The position numbers and the translations under genes were made by a program. A stretch of 64,000 nt of DNA. Source: an uncultured Bacteroidales bacterium (GTDB lineage Bacteria; Bacteroidota; Bacteroidia; Bacteroidales; UBA3824). The stretch spans positions 11,141 to 75,140 of the forward strand of contig CAMVLO010000009.1 in the NCBI GenBank assembly GCA_947168365.1, read 5' to 3'. The notes under the pieces were generated by a model, which worked only from the letters and a program-made list of their open reading frames with translations, was not told where the DNA came from and ran no database searches. This document shows positions 7,680 through 51,168 of this stretch, in pieces (position 1 is the first letter of the stretch; the number at the start of each line of letters is the position of its first letter).

Positions 7680-8057
7680 TTACTTTTTCTTAGGTTTCTT
7701 AGCACCGTATTTAGATCTCTGCTGTCCACGATTTGCAACACCTGCTGTATCCAATGTACCGCGGATGATGTGATAACGTACACCAGGGAGGTCTTTAACA
7801 CGACCGCCACGTACCATTACAATTGAGTGTTCCTGCAAGTTGTGTCCTTCTCCCGGGATGTAAGCATTTACTTCCTTAGAGTTAGAAAGCTTTACTCTGG
7901 CAACTTTGCGCATTGCAGAGTTAGGTTTCTTAGGAGTTGTTGTGTATACACGTACACATACACCTCTCTTCTGTGGACAAGAATCTAATGCTGGAGACTT
8001 ACTTTTTACAGTAATGGTCTTTCTACCTTTTCTTACTAACTGTTGAATTGTAGGCAT
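7680..8057 (-). CDS. rpsL: 30S ribosomal protein S12 (uS12)
   Basis: The 125-aa ORF starts [13 protein letters not shown] and contains [15 protein letters not shown] and [14 protein letters not shown]. Confidence 0.97.
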
Positions 8058-8092
8058 TTCTCTTATCTTTGAAATTAATACATTTTGAGACG

Positions 8093-8100
8093 CAAAGTTA
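8093..8100 (-). promoter_or_regulatory. Candidate Bacteroides-type -7 box (TAACTTTG) for the rpsL operon
   Basis: The minus strand reads TAACTTTG, matching the TAnnTTTG consensus, about 36 nt upstream of the rpsL ATG. A TTG lies 19 nt further upstream. Confidence 0.4.
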
Positions 8101-8492
8101 ATGTTTTTTCATGGATTATCAATAAGTTTTGTGAAAAAATTTTAGTCAAATCCTAAAATTTTTCTTTATTATCGTTGTAATTTATTGATAATCTGATTGG
8201 TAAACCCATATATTAATTTTCCGTTAAATCGCTTTTTATAAAAAATTTACTTAAAACTATTTTCGGAAAATATTGTGTATCAATACCAAAGGTTTTTACC
8301 CTCTGAAATAGTATACTAACCGTTACTTATTTTTTTCAATTTTTTTTTGACTGAAAATATCAAATTTTTCCGCAAATATCGTAATTGTTGTATCAACTAT
8401 ATCGCAATTTCTTTTTCAATCAAAATAATATTGTAACCGTAATTATATAACAAAATTTCAACTCTCAATATTACGACGCCTTATTTATAACC

Positions 8493-8526
8493 AATGCCGG
8501 CTAAGGGAAAATACCCAACCGGCATT
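8493..8526 (-). terminator. Candidate terminator hairpin downstream of the 346-aa secreted protein gene
   Basis: AATGCCGG at 8493-8500 pairs with CCGGCATT at 8519-8526, with an 18-nt loop. The trailing T-tract is weak. Confidence 0.3.
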
Positions 8527-8625
8527 ACAACTAAAAAAACTATGATAATTTATAAACAGACTATATGAGTGTTGAAATTTCGCACTTTATATTAATTGCT
8601 CTTTCAATAAAGATGTAAAAGCGGT

Positions 8626-9666
8626 CTACAAACCTCCTACTCGTACCTTTTGCTGACCTGTGGTTTCCATCTTTACGAAAGGATTGCTTTTCATAAGAAC
8701 ATGAGCCACGTCCTGATTTTTGCATTGAAGAGCATAGTTAACAGCGCAAGAATAGAAATCCATACGACGTTGTTCAAAGCCCAAACTCTTCATACGCTCG
8801 TTGGCGAAAGCTGTTTTGTATGCAACACCCGGATTGTTGTTAAGTATCGCATAATATCTCAAACGTGCATAAGCATTTCCGGCTTCAGCTGCGATTTTCA
8901 ATGTATCAGCTTCGTTCATATCTACATATTTTGACTTTGCTGTATTCCATTCGTTTTTCACAAACGAATAATCAAAGGCTTTTGATTTGAGAAGCTTTTC
9001 ACACTCAGAATCTACAAGCAAAGGATTAAACGGCTCACCGTGTTCAATCAAAATCTTAGTTAAAGGTGCACCTTTCTTTACTAATTCTTCATCAATCAAA
9101 GCACCGGCTGTCATATTTACCGACACAGCTCTGATAATCGAATAGTAGAGTCTTGACACCGCAAAATCATCAGCATCTTTCTTGATACCTTCGGCAAAAG
9201 TCAAGAGCTGCTCTTTGTAATCGGCAAATCTTGCAGCCGACAATGCTACGTAAACAACATCGCTGTACTGACTGTAATCAGAAGAGATGTTGGCACGAAT
9301 ATCAAGTACCTGCGGAATCGAGTTGTACTTAGAATCAATAGAACCCGAAACCGAAGAAAATTTAGGCATTCTGTTCAAAAACAACTGATTATTATAAACA
9401 GTAGTCTGAACCACTACACCCATTTTGTTACCGCAAAGACCACGGTTCTCTGCCTGAAAATCCGAAGCTACTTCCACACACATCGATTTAGAAGTTTGGG
9501 CACTGTCAAGAAGATAACTAAGAACATCGATGAGATTATCTGCATCGTCAACAACTGTCAAATAAGTTAAATTGTGCCATTTTTGACCCGGGATTGCATC
9601 TACTACCTGACCCCAAGTACTAATAGTTACGAACATCGCAACTAATAAAGAGAAATATCTTTTCAT
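8626..9666 (-). CDS. Hypothetical secreted protein (signal peptide; no recognisable family)
   Basis: The 346-aa ORF has the N-terminus MKRYFSLLVAMFVTISTWGQ, which looks like a Sec signal. I recognised no motif. Confidence 0.6.
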   Translation of the reverse strand: MKRYFSLLVAMFVTISTWGQVVDAIPGQKWHNLTYLTVVDDADNLIDVLSYLLDSAQTSKSMCVEVASDFQAENRGLCGNKMGVVVQTTVYNNQLFLNRMPKFSSVSGSIDSKYNSIPQVLDIRANISSDYSQYSDVVYVALSAARFADYKEQLLTFAEGIKKDADDFAVSRLYYSIIRAVSVNMTAGALIDEELVKKGAPLTKILIEHGEPFNPLLVDSECEKLLKSKAFDYSFVKNEWNTAKSKYVDMNEADTLKIAAEAGNAYARLRYYAILNNNPGVAYKTAFANERMKSLGFEQRRMDFYSCAVNYALQCKNQDVAHVLMKSNPFVKMETTGQQKVRVGGL

Positions 9667-10262
9667 TTTAATTGTTATAATAAGTGTTTTATTTCAGCCG
9701 TAAAGATAAAAAAGAATGGGGAACGAAAAACATATTAATATCAGAATTCACTATTCTTTAATACCAAAGCGACCTAAAATTATCAATAATTTAAACAATG
9801 CCTCAGACTGCGTACATTTTGACAACGCAACCCGTCACGTTATCCCACATCAATACGCCTTTCACCAAGGTGATTTAATATGTAACAAAGATTCAGCACC
9901 GTAATTACCATGGAATTTATGATGATAACACCGGTTAAAAATAAAAATTCCCTTGGGAAAAACAAAAATTACATCAAGTCACGGCTGCAATTACCCTGGG
10001 AATTATGACCGCGACCCCAAGTAAAATGTAATTTTCCAACGTCATTCTTAATGATGAACCTTTATAAAAATTACTATCTTATACGAAAAACTTCAAAGAA
10101 AGTCACGACAAAATTTATAATTTAATCTTTTTTAACATATCACGTCTACAGATACTTCTAAGTACATTTTTTGAGCAAAAATCTACTATTATAACCATAA
10201 AAACATAGGTATTTTGTATACAAATAACATAGTTGAATTTGCATAATTGAATTATTTTTTTG

Positions 10263-13028: not shown

Positions 13029-13436
13029 AATCAACGGATAATTTTGAGAGCACAATATTAGTGAGAAATTTTGACATGAACGAGTATTTATCAACCTTTT
13101 TTACAGAAAAACCACTATATTTGCCTGCCGTAAAAAAACGGAAACATGGAAACTACACGACGATTTCATTTAACACCGAATTTAACAAATGAAACAATTT
13201 TTAAATCACTACTAATAAATTAAAATTCAACAAGTTGAATTCTAATTTTACGAATAAAACAATTTTTTGCGGATTTGTTAAAAATTTGCCGACACTTGTA
13301 GCATTTGTTTGATGAAATTCATTGTAAAACATTTTGTTTAATTCGTTTTATTCAGTGAGATTTAAAAAAAATTGAAAGAGTCGTGAAGACCACAGCAATT
13401 TTCAATCAACAACGTAAAAACACAGAACAAACAGAA

Positions 13437-15149
13437 ATGAAAATAAATAAAAATCAATACCCGACAATATTAACCGGATTATTTGTAATCTTGAGTACAC
13501 TGTTTATCTACAATCCGATGTACGCGTATCAAGAAGGGTTACAGATATTTATGTTGACAACTGATTATTTGAAAGATACGATGTTGCGTCCGGGAGGTTT
13601 TAGTGATTATGTCGGGAGCTTCGTTTTACAGTTTTTCATGTATCCCGTACCTACTGTATTGATTCTTACGGCGATGATTTGCAGTTTGCAAATGATGTTG
13701 AATAAAGTATTTGTAAAAAACGGAGCTGATAATAATCAAGCCAAAATTTTGAGCGTAATAGCTGCGGGAGTTTTTTACATGCCGTTAACAGAAGTCAACA
13801 TCATTTTCAACGGTATTTTTGCGATATATTTATCAGTAGTGTTGTTAAGGCTTTCGTATATTACTGAGAATAAGATTATATTGAGTTTGTTGACAATTGC
13901 TGTATATTGGTTGACCGGCGGCTGGGGCACAGTAATATATATTGTGTCAACCACGATAAGATTCTTTGATACCAAGGTTTGGAAGTTGTTGATTGTAAAT
14001 TCGTTGATATTGGTTATCAGCAGTTTGTTAACAAAATACATAATGCAAGACGATAGCTTGAGAAACGTTTTTGAGGGAGTTGACTTCAACAGATTTCAAG
14101 ACAAACCTGCCGTTATTTGGTATGTTATGATTATGACATTTGTTATAATATTTGTAATATGCAAGCTGAAGTTTCTATTTTCTAACTTCAAAGTGAGTTA
14201 CGGGATATTGATAGTTGGTTTAGGATTGATATTGGGCTCGATGATAATGCGTTACGACAGCGAAAATATGTTGTTTTACAAGATAGACCGCATGGTAAGA
14301 TTGAAACAATGGGGCTTGATAATTTCAGAATGCGACAGCAGGGAAATTAGACATCCGCTTACGATGTGTTATTTGAATCTTGCTCTCAATGAGAAGGGAT
14401 TGCTGTTGAACAAGATGTTTAACTATAGTCAATCGGGGTCGGAAGGTCTTGCGTCATCAAAGATAGACAGTCAAAAGAAAATCATAGTAAACAGTGAGAT
14501 ATATTTCCGATTGGGCATGGCAAACACGGCAGAACGTCTTGCGATAGATGCGATGGAATGTTGCAACACGTTTCAAAAGAGCGGACGTCAATATAAACGA
14601 CTTGCAGAAGTTGCGATAATTCAGGGTAACAAACCCTTGGCAATACGCTATCTGAAAAAGTTAGAGTCAACTACATTCTATAGGAAATGGGCAATGAGAG
14701 CGGAAGAATATATTAAAAACCCGACGAAAGTAGAACCACTTAATGAATGGAAAATCAAACCGTTGGAATTTCAATATGATTTCTTTTTCAGTTCAGAAAA
14801 TACTACAGATTTGTTTTACTATATGTTGGCGAACAATCAAGACAATGCAAAACTAAATTGTTATTATATAGCCAATCTGTTGCTCAACAAGGATGTGGAA
14901 CGTCTGAACAAATTTTTAGGCGACAATTTTGATGAGTATCAACAGCTAACACACATCTACGAGTATAAGTATATACAAATAATGGAAGACAAATCGAACC
15001 AAGCAAAACAAGAGTTGAATAAAAATGATAATACAACTCTGAAATTCAAAGCTTTTCTCAATGGTATGACAAGTAAAGAATCAGACAAAGACAAGAAGTT
15101 GAAAGCGATGTTTGGCGATACTTATTGGTATTATTACTATTGCAGGTAA
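13437..15149 (+). CDS. Large polytopic membrane protein (about 9 TM) with a C-terminal helical-repeat domain; possibly DUF6057-like
   Basis: The ORF is open from GTG 13383, and ATG 13437 (MKINKNQYPTILTGLFVIL) looks like the better start. Hydrophobic segments run to about residue 290. A soluble, TPR-like helical region of about 300 aa follows. Confidence 0.7.
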   Translation: MKINKNQYPTILTGLFVILSTLFIYNPMYAYQEGLQIFMLTTDYLKDTMLRPGGFSDYVGSFVLQFFMYPVPTVLILTAMICSLQMMLNKVFVKNGADNNQAKILSVIAAGVFYMPLTEVNIIFNGIFAIYLSVVLLRLSYITENKIILSLLTIAVYWLTGGWGTVIYIVSTTIRFFDTKVWKLLIVNSLILVISSLLTKYIMQDDSLRNVFEGVDFNRFQDKPAVIWYVMIMTFVIIFVICKLKFLFSNFKVSYGILIVGLGLILGSMIMRYDSENMLFYKIDRMVRLKQWGLIISECDSREIRHPLTMCYLNLALNEKGLLLNKMFNYSQSGSEGLASSKIDSQKKIIVNSEIYFRLGMANTAERLAIDAMECCNTFQKSGRQYKRLAEVAIIQGNKPLAIRYLKKLESTTFYRKWAMRAEEYIKNPTKVEPLNEWKIKPLEFQYDFFFSSENTTDLFYYMLANNQDNAKLNCYYIANLLLNKDVERLNKFLGDNFDEYQQLTHIYEYKYIQIMEDKSNQAKQELNKNDNTTLKFKAFLNGMTSKESDKDKKLKAMFGDTYWYYYYCR

Positions 15150-15679
15150 TGAAGGAAATAAAACAGGCGTATGTTCAACAAAATTAGAACAAATTAATTT
15201 CAATCTACGATTAAAATTTTGGGAGACAACAACTTTCCTAACACCTCTACACCACGAGTAAGAGTATATGTATTAACATACGGCATTTCGACTTAAATAC
15301 ACATATCATATTTCCCTTCAGAATAATAGATATGTGTGGGATTTAACACGTCAGATGACTGTCCGTCTCTGAAATTCCACTAAATTTCTTCCGGCTGATA
15401 ATCACTATACAGAAAACTTACCTGACCACAATAAAAACTCTCATATTGAAAATTAGGGCAAAATCTTATATAATTGGGGAATAAATATAATAGGCGGAAT
15501 CAGTCTCAACATCGTTTTCCCACAAAAGTTCCTTTGACAAATGTGAGCGAGAGTCATCCGTCTTAACACAAAATTGTGTTCCTATTCCGCAAAAAAAGGA
15601 ATCACCAACTAACAATTCATGAATAAAAGACATCTCAATATCCAAATCATCAGCCAATTCACGCACACAACTAAATACA

Positions 15680-15719
15680 CAAAGCCATAGAAAGAAAAAA
15701 AATTCTCTCTATGGCTTTG
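15680..15719 (-). terminator. Terminator hairpin ending the ftsZ-siaB-like-siaC-like transcription unit
   Basis: A perfect 12-bp stem forms between CAAAGCCATAGA (15680-15691) and TCTATGGCTTTG (15708-15719), 54 nt downstream of the stop at 15773. Confidence 0.5.
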
Positions 15720-15772
15720 TATGTAATATTTCCGGAGCAAACGGTGTTGAAAAAAAAATATCAACAGCGAAT

Positions 15773-16150
15773 TTATTCATCAATTTCCACAAGTTCAAAC
15801 GGCACATTAACGAGTTTTTTGTAACGTGCGCCAAGTGTTCTCATGTCTTCGTCGATAGATTCGTAATACCAACGTACTTTCACATCACCCTTTTCAGCCA
15901 CTTTCTGGAGTAAAAGAATAATCTGAATAATTTGTTTACTCGACGCAGTGTTAACATATTCGAGGTCGAAATCGAACTGAGTCTGTACGTTAGGTTCTTC
16001 AGCATATTGTTTGATCCAATCCAAAACGGGTTTATAGAAATCCAAAGCGTTTTCAGGAACTGAAATCTTTGAGATTTTGAAAACACCGCCTTCCGGATCA
16101 AATATTATTTCTGGTGAATCTTCTGTTTCTTCTCTAAAAAATTTTTCCAT
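15773..16150 (-). CDS. DUF1987 / SiaC-family regulatory phosphoprotein-like protein
   Basis: The 125-aa ORF contains PEIIFDPEGGVFKISKISVPENALDFYKPVLDWIKQY, FDLEYVNTASSKQIIQIILLLQK and VRWYYESIDEDM. This matches the DUF1987 pattern as I remember it. It starts 9 nt after the upstream gene. Confidence 0.8.
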   Translation of the reverse strand: MEKFFREETEDSPEIIFDPEGGVFKISKISVPENALDFYKPVLDWIKQYAEEPNVQTQFDFDLEYVNTASSKQIIQIILLLQKVAEKGDVKVRWYYESIDEDMRTLGARYKKLVNVPFELVEIDE

Positions 16151-16159
16151 ACTATTAGT

Positions 16160-17308
16160 TTATTTCTTCTTGTTTTTAACAGTGGTTTGCAAAAGATAAA
16201 ATTGTTCTTTGTCGTTGATTGGCTGGAACTCGTATTTAAGCGGCCTGTCGCTCTTGATTCTAAGATCAGAGAAACCCAAACCAGTTTTCTTAGCGTCAGC
16301 AGTATCAAAGTCGAGAAGGATATCATCGTAATAGTCAGAAAGTTCGTCTTTGCTCATGCCGTTAACGAATTCGAGACGATCGGTGATAACTTGCTTAGCT
16401 TCGTTAGGAATAATATTTCCTGAAGTAAGAATAGTTTCGTTGTCTTTCTGACCGAGGAAGAACACTCCTGAAGTACCGGCTGAATCGGCAGTACGGATAC
16501 CGTGTTTGATAATATTCTGAAGCATTTCCACCATTACGTTTGAAATCTTGATGGTGGTGAGCGGCATATTCATTCTTGACTTGATGATTGCGAGCAAACT
16601 CAAGAGGTTTTCCTGATTGAAGAAGCCGTTGAAATACAACAAAATATTTTCAGTGTTCATCTGTTGGTGCAGTTCTTTTACGCTTTCCAACGAACTATGT
16701 TTTCCATTACAGTTGACATCGCCGTATGTAGAATCAGTAGGTATCAAAGTCTGAAGATAGAAATATGTATACTGATCGTTAAGATGTTCAAAACTATAAA
16801 GCAATTTGTTGCCCGACTTTCTTGACATCTCAATCAAACCCAAACCGGCACCACCTTTGTCAGAAATATTACCGTTAGAAAGAATCTCACGGTGAAATTT
16901 CTTGAGTTCTTCGGGAGAAAGCGAGTTGATTACGTCAAGTTTGGATTTTAGACTATCGATTTTGTCGTTGGCAACGATATTACCGGTAGAGATAAAATAC
17001 TTATCGCCATTTTTTTGAATAGCGAATATGCCAGGATATTCTTCAAATTCTTTGTCGTTGGCAATTTCTTCCTGATGGTGGGTGATGTTTTGTAAACCTT
17101 CCACCATGATGTAATAGATACGTTTCTGCAAAGTAGCTTGAGCTTGGTGAGTTACTTTAGCAATACTTGTATCAGCCAAGTAAAGAATTTTCTTGGTAAT
17201 GCTGTGATCGAAATAACCTCTGTAAACGTATTCAAAGTCGTTGTCGTTGATTCTTTGAAACAAAGGATATGCGATTTCAAAAAGATTTTGACCTGATTCC
17301 TGTGCCAT
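16160..17308 (-). CDS. Tandem-duplicated SiaB-like (DUF6272, GHKL-type) protein kinase
   Basis: The 382-aa ORF has two homologous halves. Half 1 has MVEGLQNITHH and KGGAGLGLIEMSRKSGNKLLYSFE. Half 2 has MVEMLQNIIKHG and KKTGLGFSDLRIKSDRPLKYEF, where the Gly-rich lid is degenerate. It starts 51 nt after the ftsZ stop. Confidence 0.75.
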   Translation of the reverse strand: MAQESGQNLFEIAYPLFQRINDNDFEYVYRGYFDHSITKKILYLADTSIAKVTHQAQATLQKRIYYIMVEGLQNITHHQEEIANDKEFEEYPGIFAIQKNGDKYFISTGNIVANDKIDSLKSKLDVINSLSPEELKKFHREILSNGNISDKGGAGLGLIEMSRKSGNKLLYSFEHLNDQYTYFYLQTLIPTDSTYGDVNCNGKHSSLESVKELHQQMNTENILLYFNGFFNQENLLSLLAIIKSRMNMPLTTIKISNVMVEMLQNIIKHGIRTADSAGTSGVFFLGQKDNETILTSGNIIPNEAKQVITDRLEFVNGMSKDELSDYYDDILLDFDTADAKKTGLGFSDLRIKSDRPLKYEFQPINDKEQFYLLQTTVKNKKK

Positions 17309-17359
17309 AGTTATCGTTTGTTATTAATATCCTACCATTATTGCAATAAAAATGCCAAT

Positions 17360-18817
17360 CTATTCCTCGTTTAAAGGGAATTTTTGATATTTAGCGTTAT
17401 TATAATTTCCGCCATTGAGTTTGATTCCCTTGCGAATATACGCCGGTGTATTCTCATATTCCTCAATGTTGCCGGTAGTAAGGTTGATTTTCTTGAATTG
17501 AGTTTCAGTAATAGTTGCGTGTGGCATTTCTTGCTGTTCTGATTGGTTGGTATCAACGTTTTGATCTTGCAAATCAGAATCGGCATCTGTATCAGAATCC
17601 AAATCGATGGTTTCGCCCACTTTTACAGTTGAACTGTCGTTCTTATCAACAAAATCAGAAGCATTTGCCGTTGATTTTACTTGAGAATCAGTTGTTTCAC
17701 TATTATCTGATTGTAGAACTTCAGTTTCGTCTGCATTCTGATTTTTTTTTGGAGTCTGATCAAGGAATTCCGATGTATTAACTTTGGGTTTGTAACCGCC
17801 GTGTTCATACGGATTCAAAATTTCCTGAGGATCGAAACCGGTTGCAATCAAAGTCACACAGATAGCCTCGCCGAGTGTCGGGTCAACAGAGTTACCCCAA
17901 ATAAGGTCGGCATTAGCACCGGCAGCAGACTGGATAAATTCGTTGAGGAAGGCAAGCTCGTTAAGTGTAGTCTGATTTTCACCTGATGACACGTTGACAA
18001 GGATGTTCTTAGAACCTTGGATGTTGTTGTTATTAAGCAACGGAGAGTTAAGAGCCTGCATGATAGCACGTTTAGCACGGTCTTCGCCTTCTGCTTTACC
18101 TGTACCCATCAAAGCCACGCCAGAGTTCTCCATTACCGTCTTCACATCGGCGAAATCGACGTTGACAGAACCTGTTACGGTGATAATCTCGGCAATACCT
18201 TTAGCCGCCATTGTCAAAACGTTGTCAGCGTTGGTAAATGCGTCTTGAATTGTCATCTCGCCGTACATCTCACGGATTTTCTCGTTGTCGATAACCAACA
18301 AAGAGTCAACATTATGCGATAATTCCTCAAGACCAGCAAGAGCTTGTTTTACACGTTTAGGACCTTCAAAACGGAAGGGAATTGTAACAATAGCAATTGT
18401 AAGAATTCCCATTTCTTTGGAAATCTTGGCAATTACCGGAGCAGCACCTGTACCGGTACCACCACCAAGTCCCGCCGTTACGAAAAGCATTTTTGTAGTA
18501 TCGTTGTCAACAAGATGATTTTTGATATCATCAATACTTTCAGTAGCAGCTTGTTTACCGTGTTCAGGATTGTTACCAGCGCCCAAACCCTGTGTAAGAG
18601 ATGCTCCAATCTGAATTTTTGTAGGAATAGGACTTGCAGCAAGAGCTTGATTGTCAGTATTAGCAATAATAAAGTCAACGTCTTTGATACCACATGCAAA
18701 CATGTGATTGACAGCGTTGCCACCGCCTCCACCTACACCCAAAACTTTTATGATATTGTTCTTTTTCTCAAAATTGAAGCCTAAAGTATCATCGGCCGCT
18801 GTATCTAAATCAATCAT
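17360..18817 (-). CDS. ftsZ: Cell division protein FtsZ
   Basis: The 485-aa ORF contains GVGGGGGNAVNHM and the tubulin signature GLGGGTGTGAAPVIA. It has a long low-complexity C-terminal linker. Confidence 0.97.
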   Translation of the reverse strand: MIDLDTAADDTLGFNFEKKNNIIKVLGVGGGGGNAVNHMFACGIKDVDFIIANTDNQALAASPIPTKIQIGASLTQGLGAGNNPEHGKQAATESIDDIKNHLVDNDTTKMLFVTAGLGGGTGTGAAPVIAKISKEMGILTIAIVTIPFRFEGPKRVKQALAGLEELSHNVDSLLVIDNEKIREMYGEMTIQDAFTNADNVLTMAAKGIAEIITVTGSVNVDFADVKTVMENSGVALMGTGKAEGEDRAKRAIMQALNSPLLNNNNIQGSKNILVNVSSGENQTTLNELAFLNEFIQSAAGANADLIWGNSVDPTLGEAICVTLIATGFDPQEILNPYEHGGYKPKVNTSEFLDQTPKKNQNADETEVLQSDNSETTDSQVKSTANASDFVDKNDSSTVKVGETIDLDSDTDADSDLQDQNVDTNQSEQQEMPHATITETQFKKINLTTGNIEEYENTPAYIRKGIKLNGGNYNNAKYQKFPLNEE

Positions 18818-22547: not shown

Positions 22548-23450
22548 TTATTCATTTGCAGTCGAGACATTGTTGATATTACCAATCAAAACATCTACTC
22601 TATTTAGCAAATTCAAGACAGTAGTTTTGTCGCATCTGTCTTTTTTGAGTTCGTCAGTTGCTGAATGCAAGCACTGAAGAGCCGAAGTGATGTTGCTGGT
22701 TTTATTCAAAAATGTCAAAAGTTGATTGCGACGCTCTTTCAAAAGATTGAGCTTATATGCTTCAACCAAATTATGTTTGCCTTCGTATGGTTGGAAAACA
22801 TATTTAGAGAGTTTTTCTTCGTTGAAAGATGATTCCGGAATAGAAGCGAGAGTATTCTGGTAATCAATGAAAGACTGATTCAAATTTGCACTCCAAGTTT
22901 TGATATCATCGCTCCAAATTTCTTCCAATGCCAAAAACAAGCAAGACATTACAGCGCTTTCGCTATAACGTTTGGAATTGATATGCGATTTAACAACTTT
23001 AACAGTTTGTAATGCAACTGAATCACCAAGAGTAGAATAGTAAGATGTGATGTTGTTACAGCATTTAGAAAACGCGTCTTGTTTACCGGTAAAACCGTTG
23101 TCAGCCAACACTGCATATTCCGAAGCCACTTGCTTGTAAAGATAAAGTAACTGCAATTTTACTTGCATCGAATCGTTTACAAGACCAACATGCGGATAAT
23201 CGATATCAGAATTAGCTAAAATACCACTGACAGCATTTTCAAATTCGCTATCAAATGTAAGATTATCAACCTCTTGATATGCCTTAACTATAACATCGAC
23301 AACCAATGATGTCTTTTCAGCCAAAGTGGTCTCAAGCTTCGATTTTGATGTAGTAAAAGTATCGGTCAAAGAAGAATCTGAACAACTTTGAACGAACAAT
23401 GCAGCCACAAATGCAGCTACAGAGTATATTAGTATTTTTGCGCGTTTCAT
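22548..23450 (-). CDS. Hypothetical helical lipoprotein inserted in the dcw cluster
   Basis: The 300-aa ORF starts MKRAKILIYSVAAFVAALFVQSCSD (lipobox). I recognised no family. It is co-oriented between murG and murC with gaps of 61 and 51 nt. Confidence 0.65.
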   Translation of the reverse strand: MKRAKILIYSVAAFVAALFVQSCSDSSLTDTFTTSKSKLETTLAEKTSLVVDVIVKAYQEVDNLTFDSEFENAVSGILANSDIDYPHVGLVNDSMQVKLQLLYLYKQVASEYAVLADNGFTGKQDAFSKCCNNITSYYSTLGDSVALQTVKVVKSHINSKRYSESAVMSCLFLALEEIWSDDIKTWSANLNQSFIDYQNTLASIPESSFNEEKLSKYVFQPYEGKHNLVEAYKLNLLKERRNQLLTFLNKTSNITSALQCLHSATDELKKDRCDKTTVLNLLNRVDVLIGNINNVSTANE

Positions 23451-50201: not shown

Positions 50202-50235
50202 AGAGGCTGTCACAAAAATGACAGCCTCTTTTTTT
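50202..50235 (+). terminator. Intrinsic terminator after the TPR lipoprotein gene
   Basis: AGAGGCTGTCA (50202-50212) pairs with TGACAGCCTCT (50218-50228) and is followed by T7. Confidence 0.7.
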
Positions 50236-50310
50236 ATTTTTCTTTCTCACGATTGTTTATTTCTCAAAAATCATTTACCTTTGCCGTTGATAATCAAAAC
50301 CGATACAATT

Positions 50311-51168
50311 ATGCCAAAATATCTTGACCCGAAGGCTGATTTAACCTTCAAGAAAATATTCGGACAACACAAACACTTGGTGATGAGCCTTTTGAATGCG
50401 TTGCTACCCTTGCCCGACGGAATGGTGATTAAGTCGGTTGAATATCTTACACCCGAAAATATTCCGGACACTCCGGCTAAAAAATATTCCATTGTTGATG
50501 TATATTGCACTGACAATTACGGCAGAAAATTTATCGTTGAAATGCAGTCGTATTGGAACACGGAATTTTTTGCCCGTACACTTTTTAATGCAGCAGCTGT
50601 TTACACCAAGCAATTGAAAAAAGGGATGTCGTTCAGCGACTTAAAAGATGTTTACGCTTTGAGCCTTGTAAACGACAAAAACGGGTTCAATTACGGTAAC
50701 GAAGAATATATTCAGGAGTATTATCTTACTAACAAGCAACATGAGGGTGATAAACGTACTGATATTTCAATGGTGTTTATTGTGTTGCCAAACTTTAAAC
50801 CACAAAACCGTGCCGTAAAAAAGATGCACGACCTTTGGCTTAAATTCTTAACAGAAATTGATGAGAACACCATAGATGCAGACCCGGAACTTATTGAAAA
50901 CGAGGATACAAGTGAAGCATTAGAAATGTTGCGTGCTTCGGCATTTACCGACGCTGAGATGTTGGCATACGATAAATATTGGCTTGATGTCAGCACCGAA
51001 AAATCCGCTTTGGAACACGAACGTGCTGAAGGTCGTGCAGAAGGTCGTGCTGAAGGTGAAATGTCCAAAGCCATCACAATTGCCCGCAACCTAAAAGCCG
51101 CAGGTCTTGACATCAATTTTATTGCAGAAAACACAGGTCTTACCGCCGAAGAAATTTCAAAATTGTAA
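50311..51168 (+). CDS. Rpn-family PD-(D/E)xK recombination-promoting nuclease / putative transposase
   Basis: The likely start is ATG 50311 (MPKYLDPKADLTFKKIFG). The core is IVDVYC...FIVEMQSYW. The C-terminus carries an (AEGR)x3 repeat and a helix, as is typical of the family. The upstream part of the tracked ORF crosses the terminator. Confidence 0.8.
   Translation: MPKYLDPKADLTFKKIFGQHKHLVMSLLNALLPLPDGMVIKSVEYLTPENIPDTPAKKYSIVDVYCTDNYGRKFIVEMQSYWNTEFFARTLFNAAAVYTKQLKKGMSFSDLKDVYALSLVNDKNGFNYGNEEYIQEYYLTNKQHEGDKRTDISMVFIVLPNFKPQNRAVKKMHDLWLKFLTEIDENTIDADPELIENEDTSEALEMLRASAFTDAEMLAYDKYWLDVSTEKSALEHERAEGRAEGRAEGEMSKAITIARNLKAAGLDINFIAENTGLTAEEISKL

Follow-up and report, generated by a model that had tools for sequence, protein, structure and literature searches.

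Directly downstream of ftsZ, two genes lie on the minus strand of a 64,000-nt stretch of contig CAMVLO010000009.1 from an uncultured Bacteroidales bacterium (called the window below), and they raise the question of whether a phosphorylation switch encoded at this site belongs to the ftsZ operon and acts on cell division. The first gene encodes a tandem SiaB-type kinase of 382 amino acid residues, and the second encodes a SiaC-family (DUF1987) protein of 125 residues. An earlier note on this DNA had attached the pair to the ftsZ operon and suggested the divisome as its output. We found that a conserved sigma-54 (RpoN)-type −24/−12 element precedes the pair, and we consider it fairly probable that the two genes form an autonomous, probably RpoN-dependent partner-switch cassette that was moved beside ftsZ in one lineage. 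The cassette would consist, in this order, of a sigma-54-type promoter, a tandem SiaB-type Ser/Thr kinase, a SiaC-type phospho-acceptor, and a terminator. Gene order alone, with the pair after ftsZ and no terminator between them, over-suggested an operon and a role in the divisome.

Sigma-54-type element upstream of the kinase gene

The element in the spacer between ftsZ and the kinase gene (Table 1) was the sole match to TGGCAN6TTGCW in the window. It fits the consensus TGGCAC-N5-TTGCW with canonical GG/GC spacing, and the only mismatch is within TGGCAC, where the window has T at position 6 and many related loci have C. From the usual spacing to the −12 element, transcription is predicted to start near position 17331. 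When the spacer of the window was aligned with those of 24 related species, TGGCA(C/T)TTTTATTGCA was the sole block with more than 90% conservation, and the surroundings were unalignable. The exact motif was present in 22 of the 24 related loci, and the other two (L015 and L023) have TTGTA at the −12 position. Over 1.04 Mb of related loci there were only 26 strict matches, 22 of which were these sites upstream of the kinase gene. The distance from the element to the kinase ATG was 29–45 nt in 21 of the 22 loci with the exact motif and 73 nt in L014. The sequence TGGCA(C/T)-N5-TTGCA, the canonical spacing, and the short leader to the ATG are all features of canonical RpoN promoters, and sigma-54-dependent transcription has been documented in Bacteroidia (PMC12316311).

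The element was also detected where the pair is not linked to ftsZ. In three sister loci (L026, L029, and L030), the near-identical sequence CGGCATTTTTATTGCT precedes the ATG of the kinase gene by 63 nt, and the pair stands alone there, 667–821 nt from a divergent gene and with no co-oriented gene upstream. Weaker GG-N10-GC versions were observed upstream of the pair in L034 and L035.

A scan of metagenome contigs with the 16-mer of the window served as a positive control and returned at least 120 stretches, mostly chance matches from unrelated environments. Among the matches listed, the identical 16-mer was located 42–99 nt before amtB, fliE, flgF/G, and an NrtA-like gene in unrelated contigs, and none adjoined a SiaB-like gene. 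The genes amtB, fliE, and flgF/G are classical sigma-54 targets. The definition of a regulon by the exact 16-mer in metagenome contigs was given up because the matches listed were mostly due to chance.

Distribution of the pair and its linkage to ftsZ

A total of 1527 kinase homologues were found, and the gene neighborhoods were surveyed with one genome per species, giving 80 loci (L001–L080). The SiaC gene directly follows the kinase gene in 78 of these loci and is fused to it in five of them, and the remaining two (L061 and L063) have two kinases in tandem. In L061 and L063 (positions 8001–10213), the tandem-kinase genes are located side by side with no adjacent SiaC gene, and they are preceded by genes for a Cache-HAMP-GAF-PAS protein (1113 residues) and a 508-residue protein without a Pfam match.

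The gene order murC-ftsQ-ftsA-ftsZ was found directly upstream of the pair in L001–L024 only (24/80). All of these loci are from uncultured Bacteroidales of the rumen or of the yak, goat, sheep, deer, or horse gut. Their kinases are at least 66% identical to the window kinase, and their FtsZ proteins are only 50–61% identical to the window FtsZ. In a neighbor-joining tree, the kinases of L001–L024 and the window formed one clade, and its sister group, L025–L034, is not ftsZ-linked; part of this group has the same promoter element and part is linked to PP2C phosphatase genes. Neither FtsZ nor any other division gene was found within 8 kb of the pair in the other 56 loci. Thus, the conservation of the pair downstream of ftsZ, which had been considered for the Bacteroidales at large, was observed in one clade and did not extend to the other 56 loci.

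With regard to the operon itself, the pair is the direct 3′ neighbor of ftsZ in all 24 related species, is co-oriented with it across a short gap, and is not separated from it by a terminator. To this extent the proposed attachment to the ftsZ operon stands. On the other side, synteny with ftsZ is limited to 24 of the 80 loci, and the conserved sigma-54-type element would provide an independent promoter. No terminator-grade hairpin was found in the ftsZ-kinase spacer when those of the window and six related loci were folded, and read-through from ftsZ may therefore occur.

The same data bear on the suggestion that the switch reports to the divisome, with the unphosphorylated SiaC-like protein or the kinase binding FtsZ or FtsA and modulating division. 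The pair is located co-oriented 51 nt past ftsZ without an intervening terminator, it is linked to no other output gene, and the junction is invariant in 24/24 species despite the divergence of FtsZ and a downstream flank that was rearranged at least six times. However, the pair has its own conserved sigma-54-type element, the cassette and its promoter element occur apart from ftsZ in the sister clade, the 56 other loci lack a division gene within 8 kb, and the SiaC fusion proteins described below reveal no division-related partner. A cell-division role is not supported by these results, since adjacency is the only evidence for it, and we regard a divisome output as unlikely. A further reading, which we rate as very unlikely, is that the dcw (division and cell-wall) cluster of one herbivore-gut Bacteroidales lineage acquired an RpoN-gated SiaB/SiaC switch at its 3′ end and that FtsZ/FtsA function thereby responds to an environmental or metabolic signal, with phosphorylation-dependent binding by the SiaC-like protein as the link; if true, such a coupling would be a division checkpoint without a described equivalent.

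The downstream flanks within the ftsZ-linked clade contain the str operon, PD-(D/E)XK transposase-like genes, genes for TPR-PAS-HATPase proteins, an outer-membrane protein gene, or HtrA. A PDDEXK_2 transposase-like gene is present in the window at 50218–51168 (+), and copies of it (cluster c26) are located directly past siaC in L001, L002, L006, and L016. These PDDEXK_2 genes may explain the repeated rearrangement of the downstream flank. In L007–L013, the pair is followed on the same strand by genes for two paralogous proteins of about 700–1030 residues (e.g., L007:11696–14782), and the 1028-residue paralogue of L007 contains TPR, PAS, and HATPase_c domains. The siaC stop codon is followed after 6 nt by the next open reading frame (ORF) in L009 and L010. 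The paralogues of L007–L013 might provide sensor input or might feed a sigma-54 activator.

Tandem SiaB-type kinase

The 382-residue protein matched Pfam DUF6272 (PF19788) in two stretches (E 3.9e-67; 224.5 bits against a cutoff of 26.6) and, also in two stretches, the NCBIfam model SiaB_fam_kinase NF038262 (241 bits against a cutoff of 85). Its score with the SiaB equivalog model NF038264 was below the cutoff (96 vs. 225 bits). The 125-residue protein matched Pfam SiaC PF09345 (E 3.1e-36; 124 bits against a cutoff of 24.5) and was below the SiaC equivalog model NF038265 (78.5 vs. 150 bits). Because both equivalog cutoffs were missed, the two proteins belong to the SiaB and SiaC families without being orthologous to SiaB and SiaC themselves, which sets them apart from the SiaABCD system of Pseudomonas aeruginosa. 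The earlier identification of a SiaC-like and a tandem SiaB-like protein agreed with these profile hidden Markov model (HMM) searches, and the names "SiaB family protein kinase" and "DUF1987 domain-containing protein" are already in use at NCBI.

The SiaB equivalog is a single module of about 180 residues, and P. aeruginosa SiaB is a 180-residue homodimer, whereas the window kinase is a fused tandem with 26% identity between its halves (E 2e-19). In the N-terminal module, the SiaB_fam_kinase model spans residues 14–189, and residues 54–188 matched SiaB 6KKO_A in phmmer (E 2.5e-10). In the alignment with SiaB 6KKO_A, the E and N of its YIEMTQN motif correspond to E70 and N74 in the first half, and the counterparts of E70 and N74 in the second half are E261 and N265. 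We equate the Glu of YIEMTQN with the predicted catalytic E61, on the assumption that the numbering of the PDB chain is shifted by one residue. E70, N74, E261, and N265 were invariant across 92 homologues, as were [ST]GN and the GLG within the lid, and in the C-terminal module E261, Q264, N265, H269, G343, L344, G345, and D348 were invariant among 92 sequences. The N-box had been described as LQNI.KH in both halves; the first half reads LQNITHH, and the other motifs and coordinates given with it were correct.

The halves differ in the lid, and the translation confirmed GGAGLGL for the first and KKTGLGF for the second. We did not adopt the label of pseudo-kinase for the second half because Glu, Asn, and GLG are invariant there. 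In SpoIIAB, an active kinase, the lid reads ERSGMGF, and the TGLGF of the second half resembles its SGMGF box. By this analogy, a T/S-G-x-G-F lid would be compatible with activity, and the second half is predicted to be not obviously dead.

An AlphaFold2 model of the kinase built with the 92 homologues had a predicted local distance difference test score (pLDDT) of 78 and a predicted template modeling (TM) score of 0.78. The best PDB match was SiaB 6KKO_A (Foldseek E 4e-8; target TM 0.78), so the kinase resembles that of SiaABCD in both sequence and fold. SiaB works as a dimer in a complex of two SiaB and two SiaC molecules (PMC7278518; bioRxiv 10.1101/674879), and for this reason the fused kinase would most simply be a covalent SiaB pseudo-dimer.

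The next PDB matches were the anti-sigma kinases SpoIIAB, RsbW, and UsfX (Foldseek probability 0.97–1.0; TM 0.5–0.7). These matches suit a logic like that of SpoIIAB or RsbW, in which the kinase, perhaps through one half, would sequester a regulator such as a sigma factor and the unphosphorylated SiaC-like protein would displace it; the output would then lie with the kinase and not with SiaC. The pair shares with SpoIIAB-SpoIIAA, RsbW-RsbV, and UsfX-RsfB a GHKL-type kinase fold, a small STAS-related substrate with a single Ser/Thr phosphorylated at a helix start (PMC8457831; bioRxiv 10.1101/674879), and a PP2C phosphatase as input; SiaC has been described as structurally related to STAS-domain anti-sigma antagonists (PMC8457831). 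Strong purifying selection on two halves that are not identical would be in keeping with one face for catalysis and one for binding, and an rpoD-like gene (cluster c13) is located two genes away in nine loci. This gene looks like that of the housekeeping sigma factor, however, and is missing from most loci, and no sigma factor gene adjoins the pair in the window. In addition, the substrate has a sequence of the DUF1987/SiaC and not the STAS type, the kinase is a fused tandem unlike those of the anti-sigma switches, and in the sole system studied it is SiaC, not SiaB, that binds the output (PMC8457831; PMC7278518). We therefore consider the anti-sigma logic improbable.

SiaC-type acceptor protein

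T68 of the SiaC-like protein (YVNTASSK) aligned on T68 of P. aeruginosa SiaC (LLYLNTSSIK; PDB 6KKO_C / 6K4F). The latter is the phosphorylated residue of SiaC (PMC7278518; bioRxiv 10.1101/674879). Among 73 homologues, 69 had T and 4 had S at position 68, whereas Y65, N67, S70, and K72 did not vary. The 125-residue protein is thus a SiaC-family predicted phospho-acceptor that retains Thr68. The pair is like SiaABCD in having this predicted acceptor in the same motif and in the adjacency of the kinase and substrate genes.

A SiaC profile search of 1.84 billion representatives gave 5333 clusters at 50% identity. The long matches were scanned against Pfam, and no consistent output domain and nothing related to division was found among the SiaC fusions. 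The fusion types were SiaC-SiaC tandems (about 250–280 residues), kinase-SiaC, HEAT-SiaC, zinc-ribbon-SiaC, and one SLT-SiaC. The natural kinase-SiaC fusions have about 500 residues (P0118, L047, L051, L064, L076, and L080), and a model of P0118 had a pLDDT of 84.8. A 654-residue protein (P0183) showed a weak DUF6272 match and three SiaC modules. The other fusions carried HEAT repeats (P0331), a double zinc ribbon (P0241), or an SLT lytic transglycosylase domain (P0298).

Phosphatase and cyclase genes near the pair

One to three SpoIIE/PP2C phosphatase genes adjoin the pair in at least 28 of the 56 loci that are not linked to ftsZ, which is a lower bound because many contigs were short. The sensor parts of these proteins were DUF4154(YfiR-like)-PAS, PAS, or Reg_prop/Y_Y_Y-PAS. 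Many relatives therefore resemble SiaABCD, in which the phosphatase SiaA is part of the system, in having a membrane or sensor SpoIIE/PP2C phosphatase gene beside the pair. When a sister-clade phosphatase was used as a database query, no obvious orthologue group from the rumen clade was obtained. The description of the pair as an orphan holds around the window pair, where no SiaA- or SiaD-type gene was found, and fails for the family because of the SpoIIE/PP2C neighbors in the other loci. The 56 loci without FtsZ and the recurrent PP2C neighbor together indicate that the family as a whole is not linked to division and that the pair is an orphan only locally.

The ORFs of the 80 loci and of the window contained no GG[DE]EF motif, and no GGDEF domain was detected in Pfam scans of the window genes. 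The earlier statement that the window has no PP2C phosphatase or GGDEF gene agreed with the HMM, Pfam, and motif scans. Unlike SiaABCD, then, the window and the 80 loci have no GGDEF cyclase, and the window has no phosphatase within its 64 kb. The output of the cassette is not c-di-GMP (cyclic dimeric GMP) synthesis by a linked cyclase.

In L044, a strict sigma-54-type site (TGGCAAAAAATTTGCA; 8990–9005, −) is located 31 nt upstream of a SpoIIE/PP2C gene adjoining the kinase-SiaC pair. This site hints that the phosphatase may likewise be controlled by RpoN in some lineages.

Proposed switch and points that weigh against it

The cassette would operate by the switch logic known for SiaABC of P. 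aeruginosa (PMC7278518; bioRxiv 10.1101/674879). By analogy with that system, the kinase would phosphorylate Thr68 of the SiaC-like protein and block its binding to a target, and a SpoIIE/PP2C sensor phosphatase, unlinked in the window, would reverse the phosphorylation. The unphosphorylated SiaC-like protein would then bind and switch the target. As judged from the promoter element, expression of the cassette would be gated by RpoN and an enhancer-binding protein, and this predicted sigma-54-type promoter is a further difference from SiaABCD. Read-through from ftsZ may supply basal expression. The cassette and its promoter would have been relocated behind ftsZ in the ancestor of one herbivore-gut Bacteroidales clade, and the phosphatase would have become unlinked. 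The cassette is best assigned to a variant of the Sia partner switch that occurs across the Bacteroidota, with sensor PP2C input and no linked cyclase.

Several observations weigh against this reading. No rpoN gene, RpoN box, GAFTGA motif, or enhancer-binding protein was found in the window or the 80 loci, and no inverted repeats that could form an upstream activator site were found in the last 280 nt of ftsZ. In lacking a nearby activator gene and an upstream activator site, and in its location 3 nt past the end of an essential division gene, the element differs from canonical RpoN promoters, and its assignment as a promoter is drawn from the DNA sequence. Because the site begins so close to the ftsZ stop codon, any activator site would overlap the coding region for the FtsZ C-terminus. 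A search with an HMM built from 28 linked phosphatases found no SpoIIE/PP2C gene in the six frames of the window or in L001–L024 (±8 kb), so that the switch is only putatively reversible in the ftsZ-linked clade. Furthermore, the conservation of the junction could reflect selection for linkage to ftsZ.

The lack of an rpoN gene, an enhancer-binding protein, and an activator site in the window and the loci, together with the absence of a terminator between ftsZ and the kinase gene, would also suit a conserved 16-mer that is not a working promoter. It would then be a protein-binding element, an RNA element, or a relic, and the pair would be a co-transcribed 3′ end of the ftsZ unit with no regulation of its own. 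However, the 16-mer fits the sigma-54 consensus except at position 6, has the canonical spacing, is conserved where its surroundings are not, and keeps a consistent distance of 29–45 nt to the ATG. It also occurs in three loci where the pair has no co-oriented gene upstream, the identical sequence precedes amtB and flagellar genes elsewhere, and the spacer gave no Rfam match and no fold. A non-promoter element thus appears to us to have a low probability, and we retain the autonomous, probably RpoN-dependent cassette as the favored explanation.

A literature search found no paper mentioning DUF6272 and none describing a Bacteroidota SiaB/SiaC system. To our knowledge, SiaB/SiaC switches have been described only in Pseudomonas, where they regulate a diguanylate cyclase, and Bacteroidota mostly lack c-di-GMP signaling. 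A large Bacteroidota branch of the family differs from the Pseudomonas switch in three respects, namely, the fused double kinase, a sensor PP2C as the usual partner, and no linked cyclase. With no linked cyclase in a phylum mostly without c-di-GMP signaling, the Bacteroidota switch must control something else. New here are the fusion of the two kinase modules, an architecture with PP2C linkage and no cyclase, the predicted sigma-54 promoter, and the clade-specific adjacency to ftsZ. The promoter element would offer an experimental handle on the cassette through mutants of rpoN or of the activator.

Layout of the locus in the window

The minus strand of the window carries a complete dcw cluster, mraW...ftsQ-ftsA-ftsZ, with ftsZ as its last gene, and the features of the pair and its surroundings are listed in Table 1. 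The ORF coordinates agreed with the earlier account of two co-oriented genes after ftsZ with gaps of 51 and 9 nt, and so did the folding, with a strong hairpin only past the second gene and an unstructured ftsZ-kinase spacer. None of 200 shuffled sequences was as stable as this hairpin, and most related loci have hairpins at the equivalent position. An Rfam scan of the window gave no match, and Pfam scans assigned only housekeeping functions to its other genes.

Table 1. Positions of ftsZ, the kinase-SiaC pair, and associated features in the window
Feature	Position	Strand	Description
ftsZ	17360–18817	−	Pfam Tubulin (E 3e-47) and FtsZ_C (E 1e-22); final gene of the dcw cluster and upstream neighbor of the pair
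ftsZ-kinase spacer	17309–17359	−	51 nt; minimum free energy −2.4 kcal/mol, z +0.67; without a terminator-like site
Sigma-54 (RpoN)-type −24/−12 element (predicted promoter)	17342–17357	−	TGGCATTTTTATTGCA; 33 nt before the kinase ATG, 3 nt past the ftsZ stop
Tandem kinase ORF	16160–17308	−	382 residues; 51 nt past ftsZ
Kinase N-terminal SiaB-like module	16733–17308	−	Residues ~1–192; N-box MVEGLQNITHH (E70, N74), TGN, lid GGAGLGL
Kinase C-terminal SiaB-like module	16160–16693	−	Residues ~206–382 and stop; N-box MVEMLQNIIKHG (E261, N265), SGN, lid KKTGLGF; second DUF6272 stretch
SiaC-family (DUF1987) ORF	15773–16150	−	125 residues; 9-nt gap after the kinase ORF
Predicted acceptor Thr68 codon	15947–15949	−	From the alignment to SiaC
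Terminator-like hairpin closing the two-gene unit	15677–15722	−	20-bp stem; ΔG −36.2 kcal/mol, z −8.0

Downstream of the pair, a non-coding gap of about 620 nt (15150–15772) separates siaC from a convergent DUF6057 gene (13383–15149, +), and it contains the terminator-like hairpin and a 66-residue ORF (15466–15666, −). At the C-terminus of FtsZ (17360–17450, −), about 20 residues (…KLNGGNYNNAKYQKFPLNEE) extend beyond the conserved TPAYIRKG-type peptide, and in the nucleotide alignment this tail region looked partly conserved across the clade. Within the dcw cluster, an ORF of 300 residues without a Pfam match (22548–23450, −) is located between murG and murC, and 18 related loci have an ORF of similar size (cluster c6; about 297 residues) at this position.

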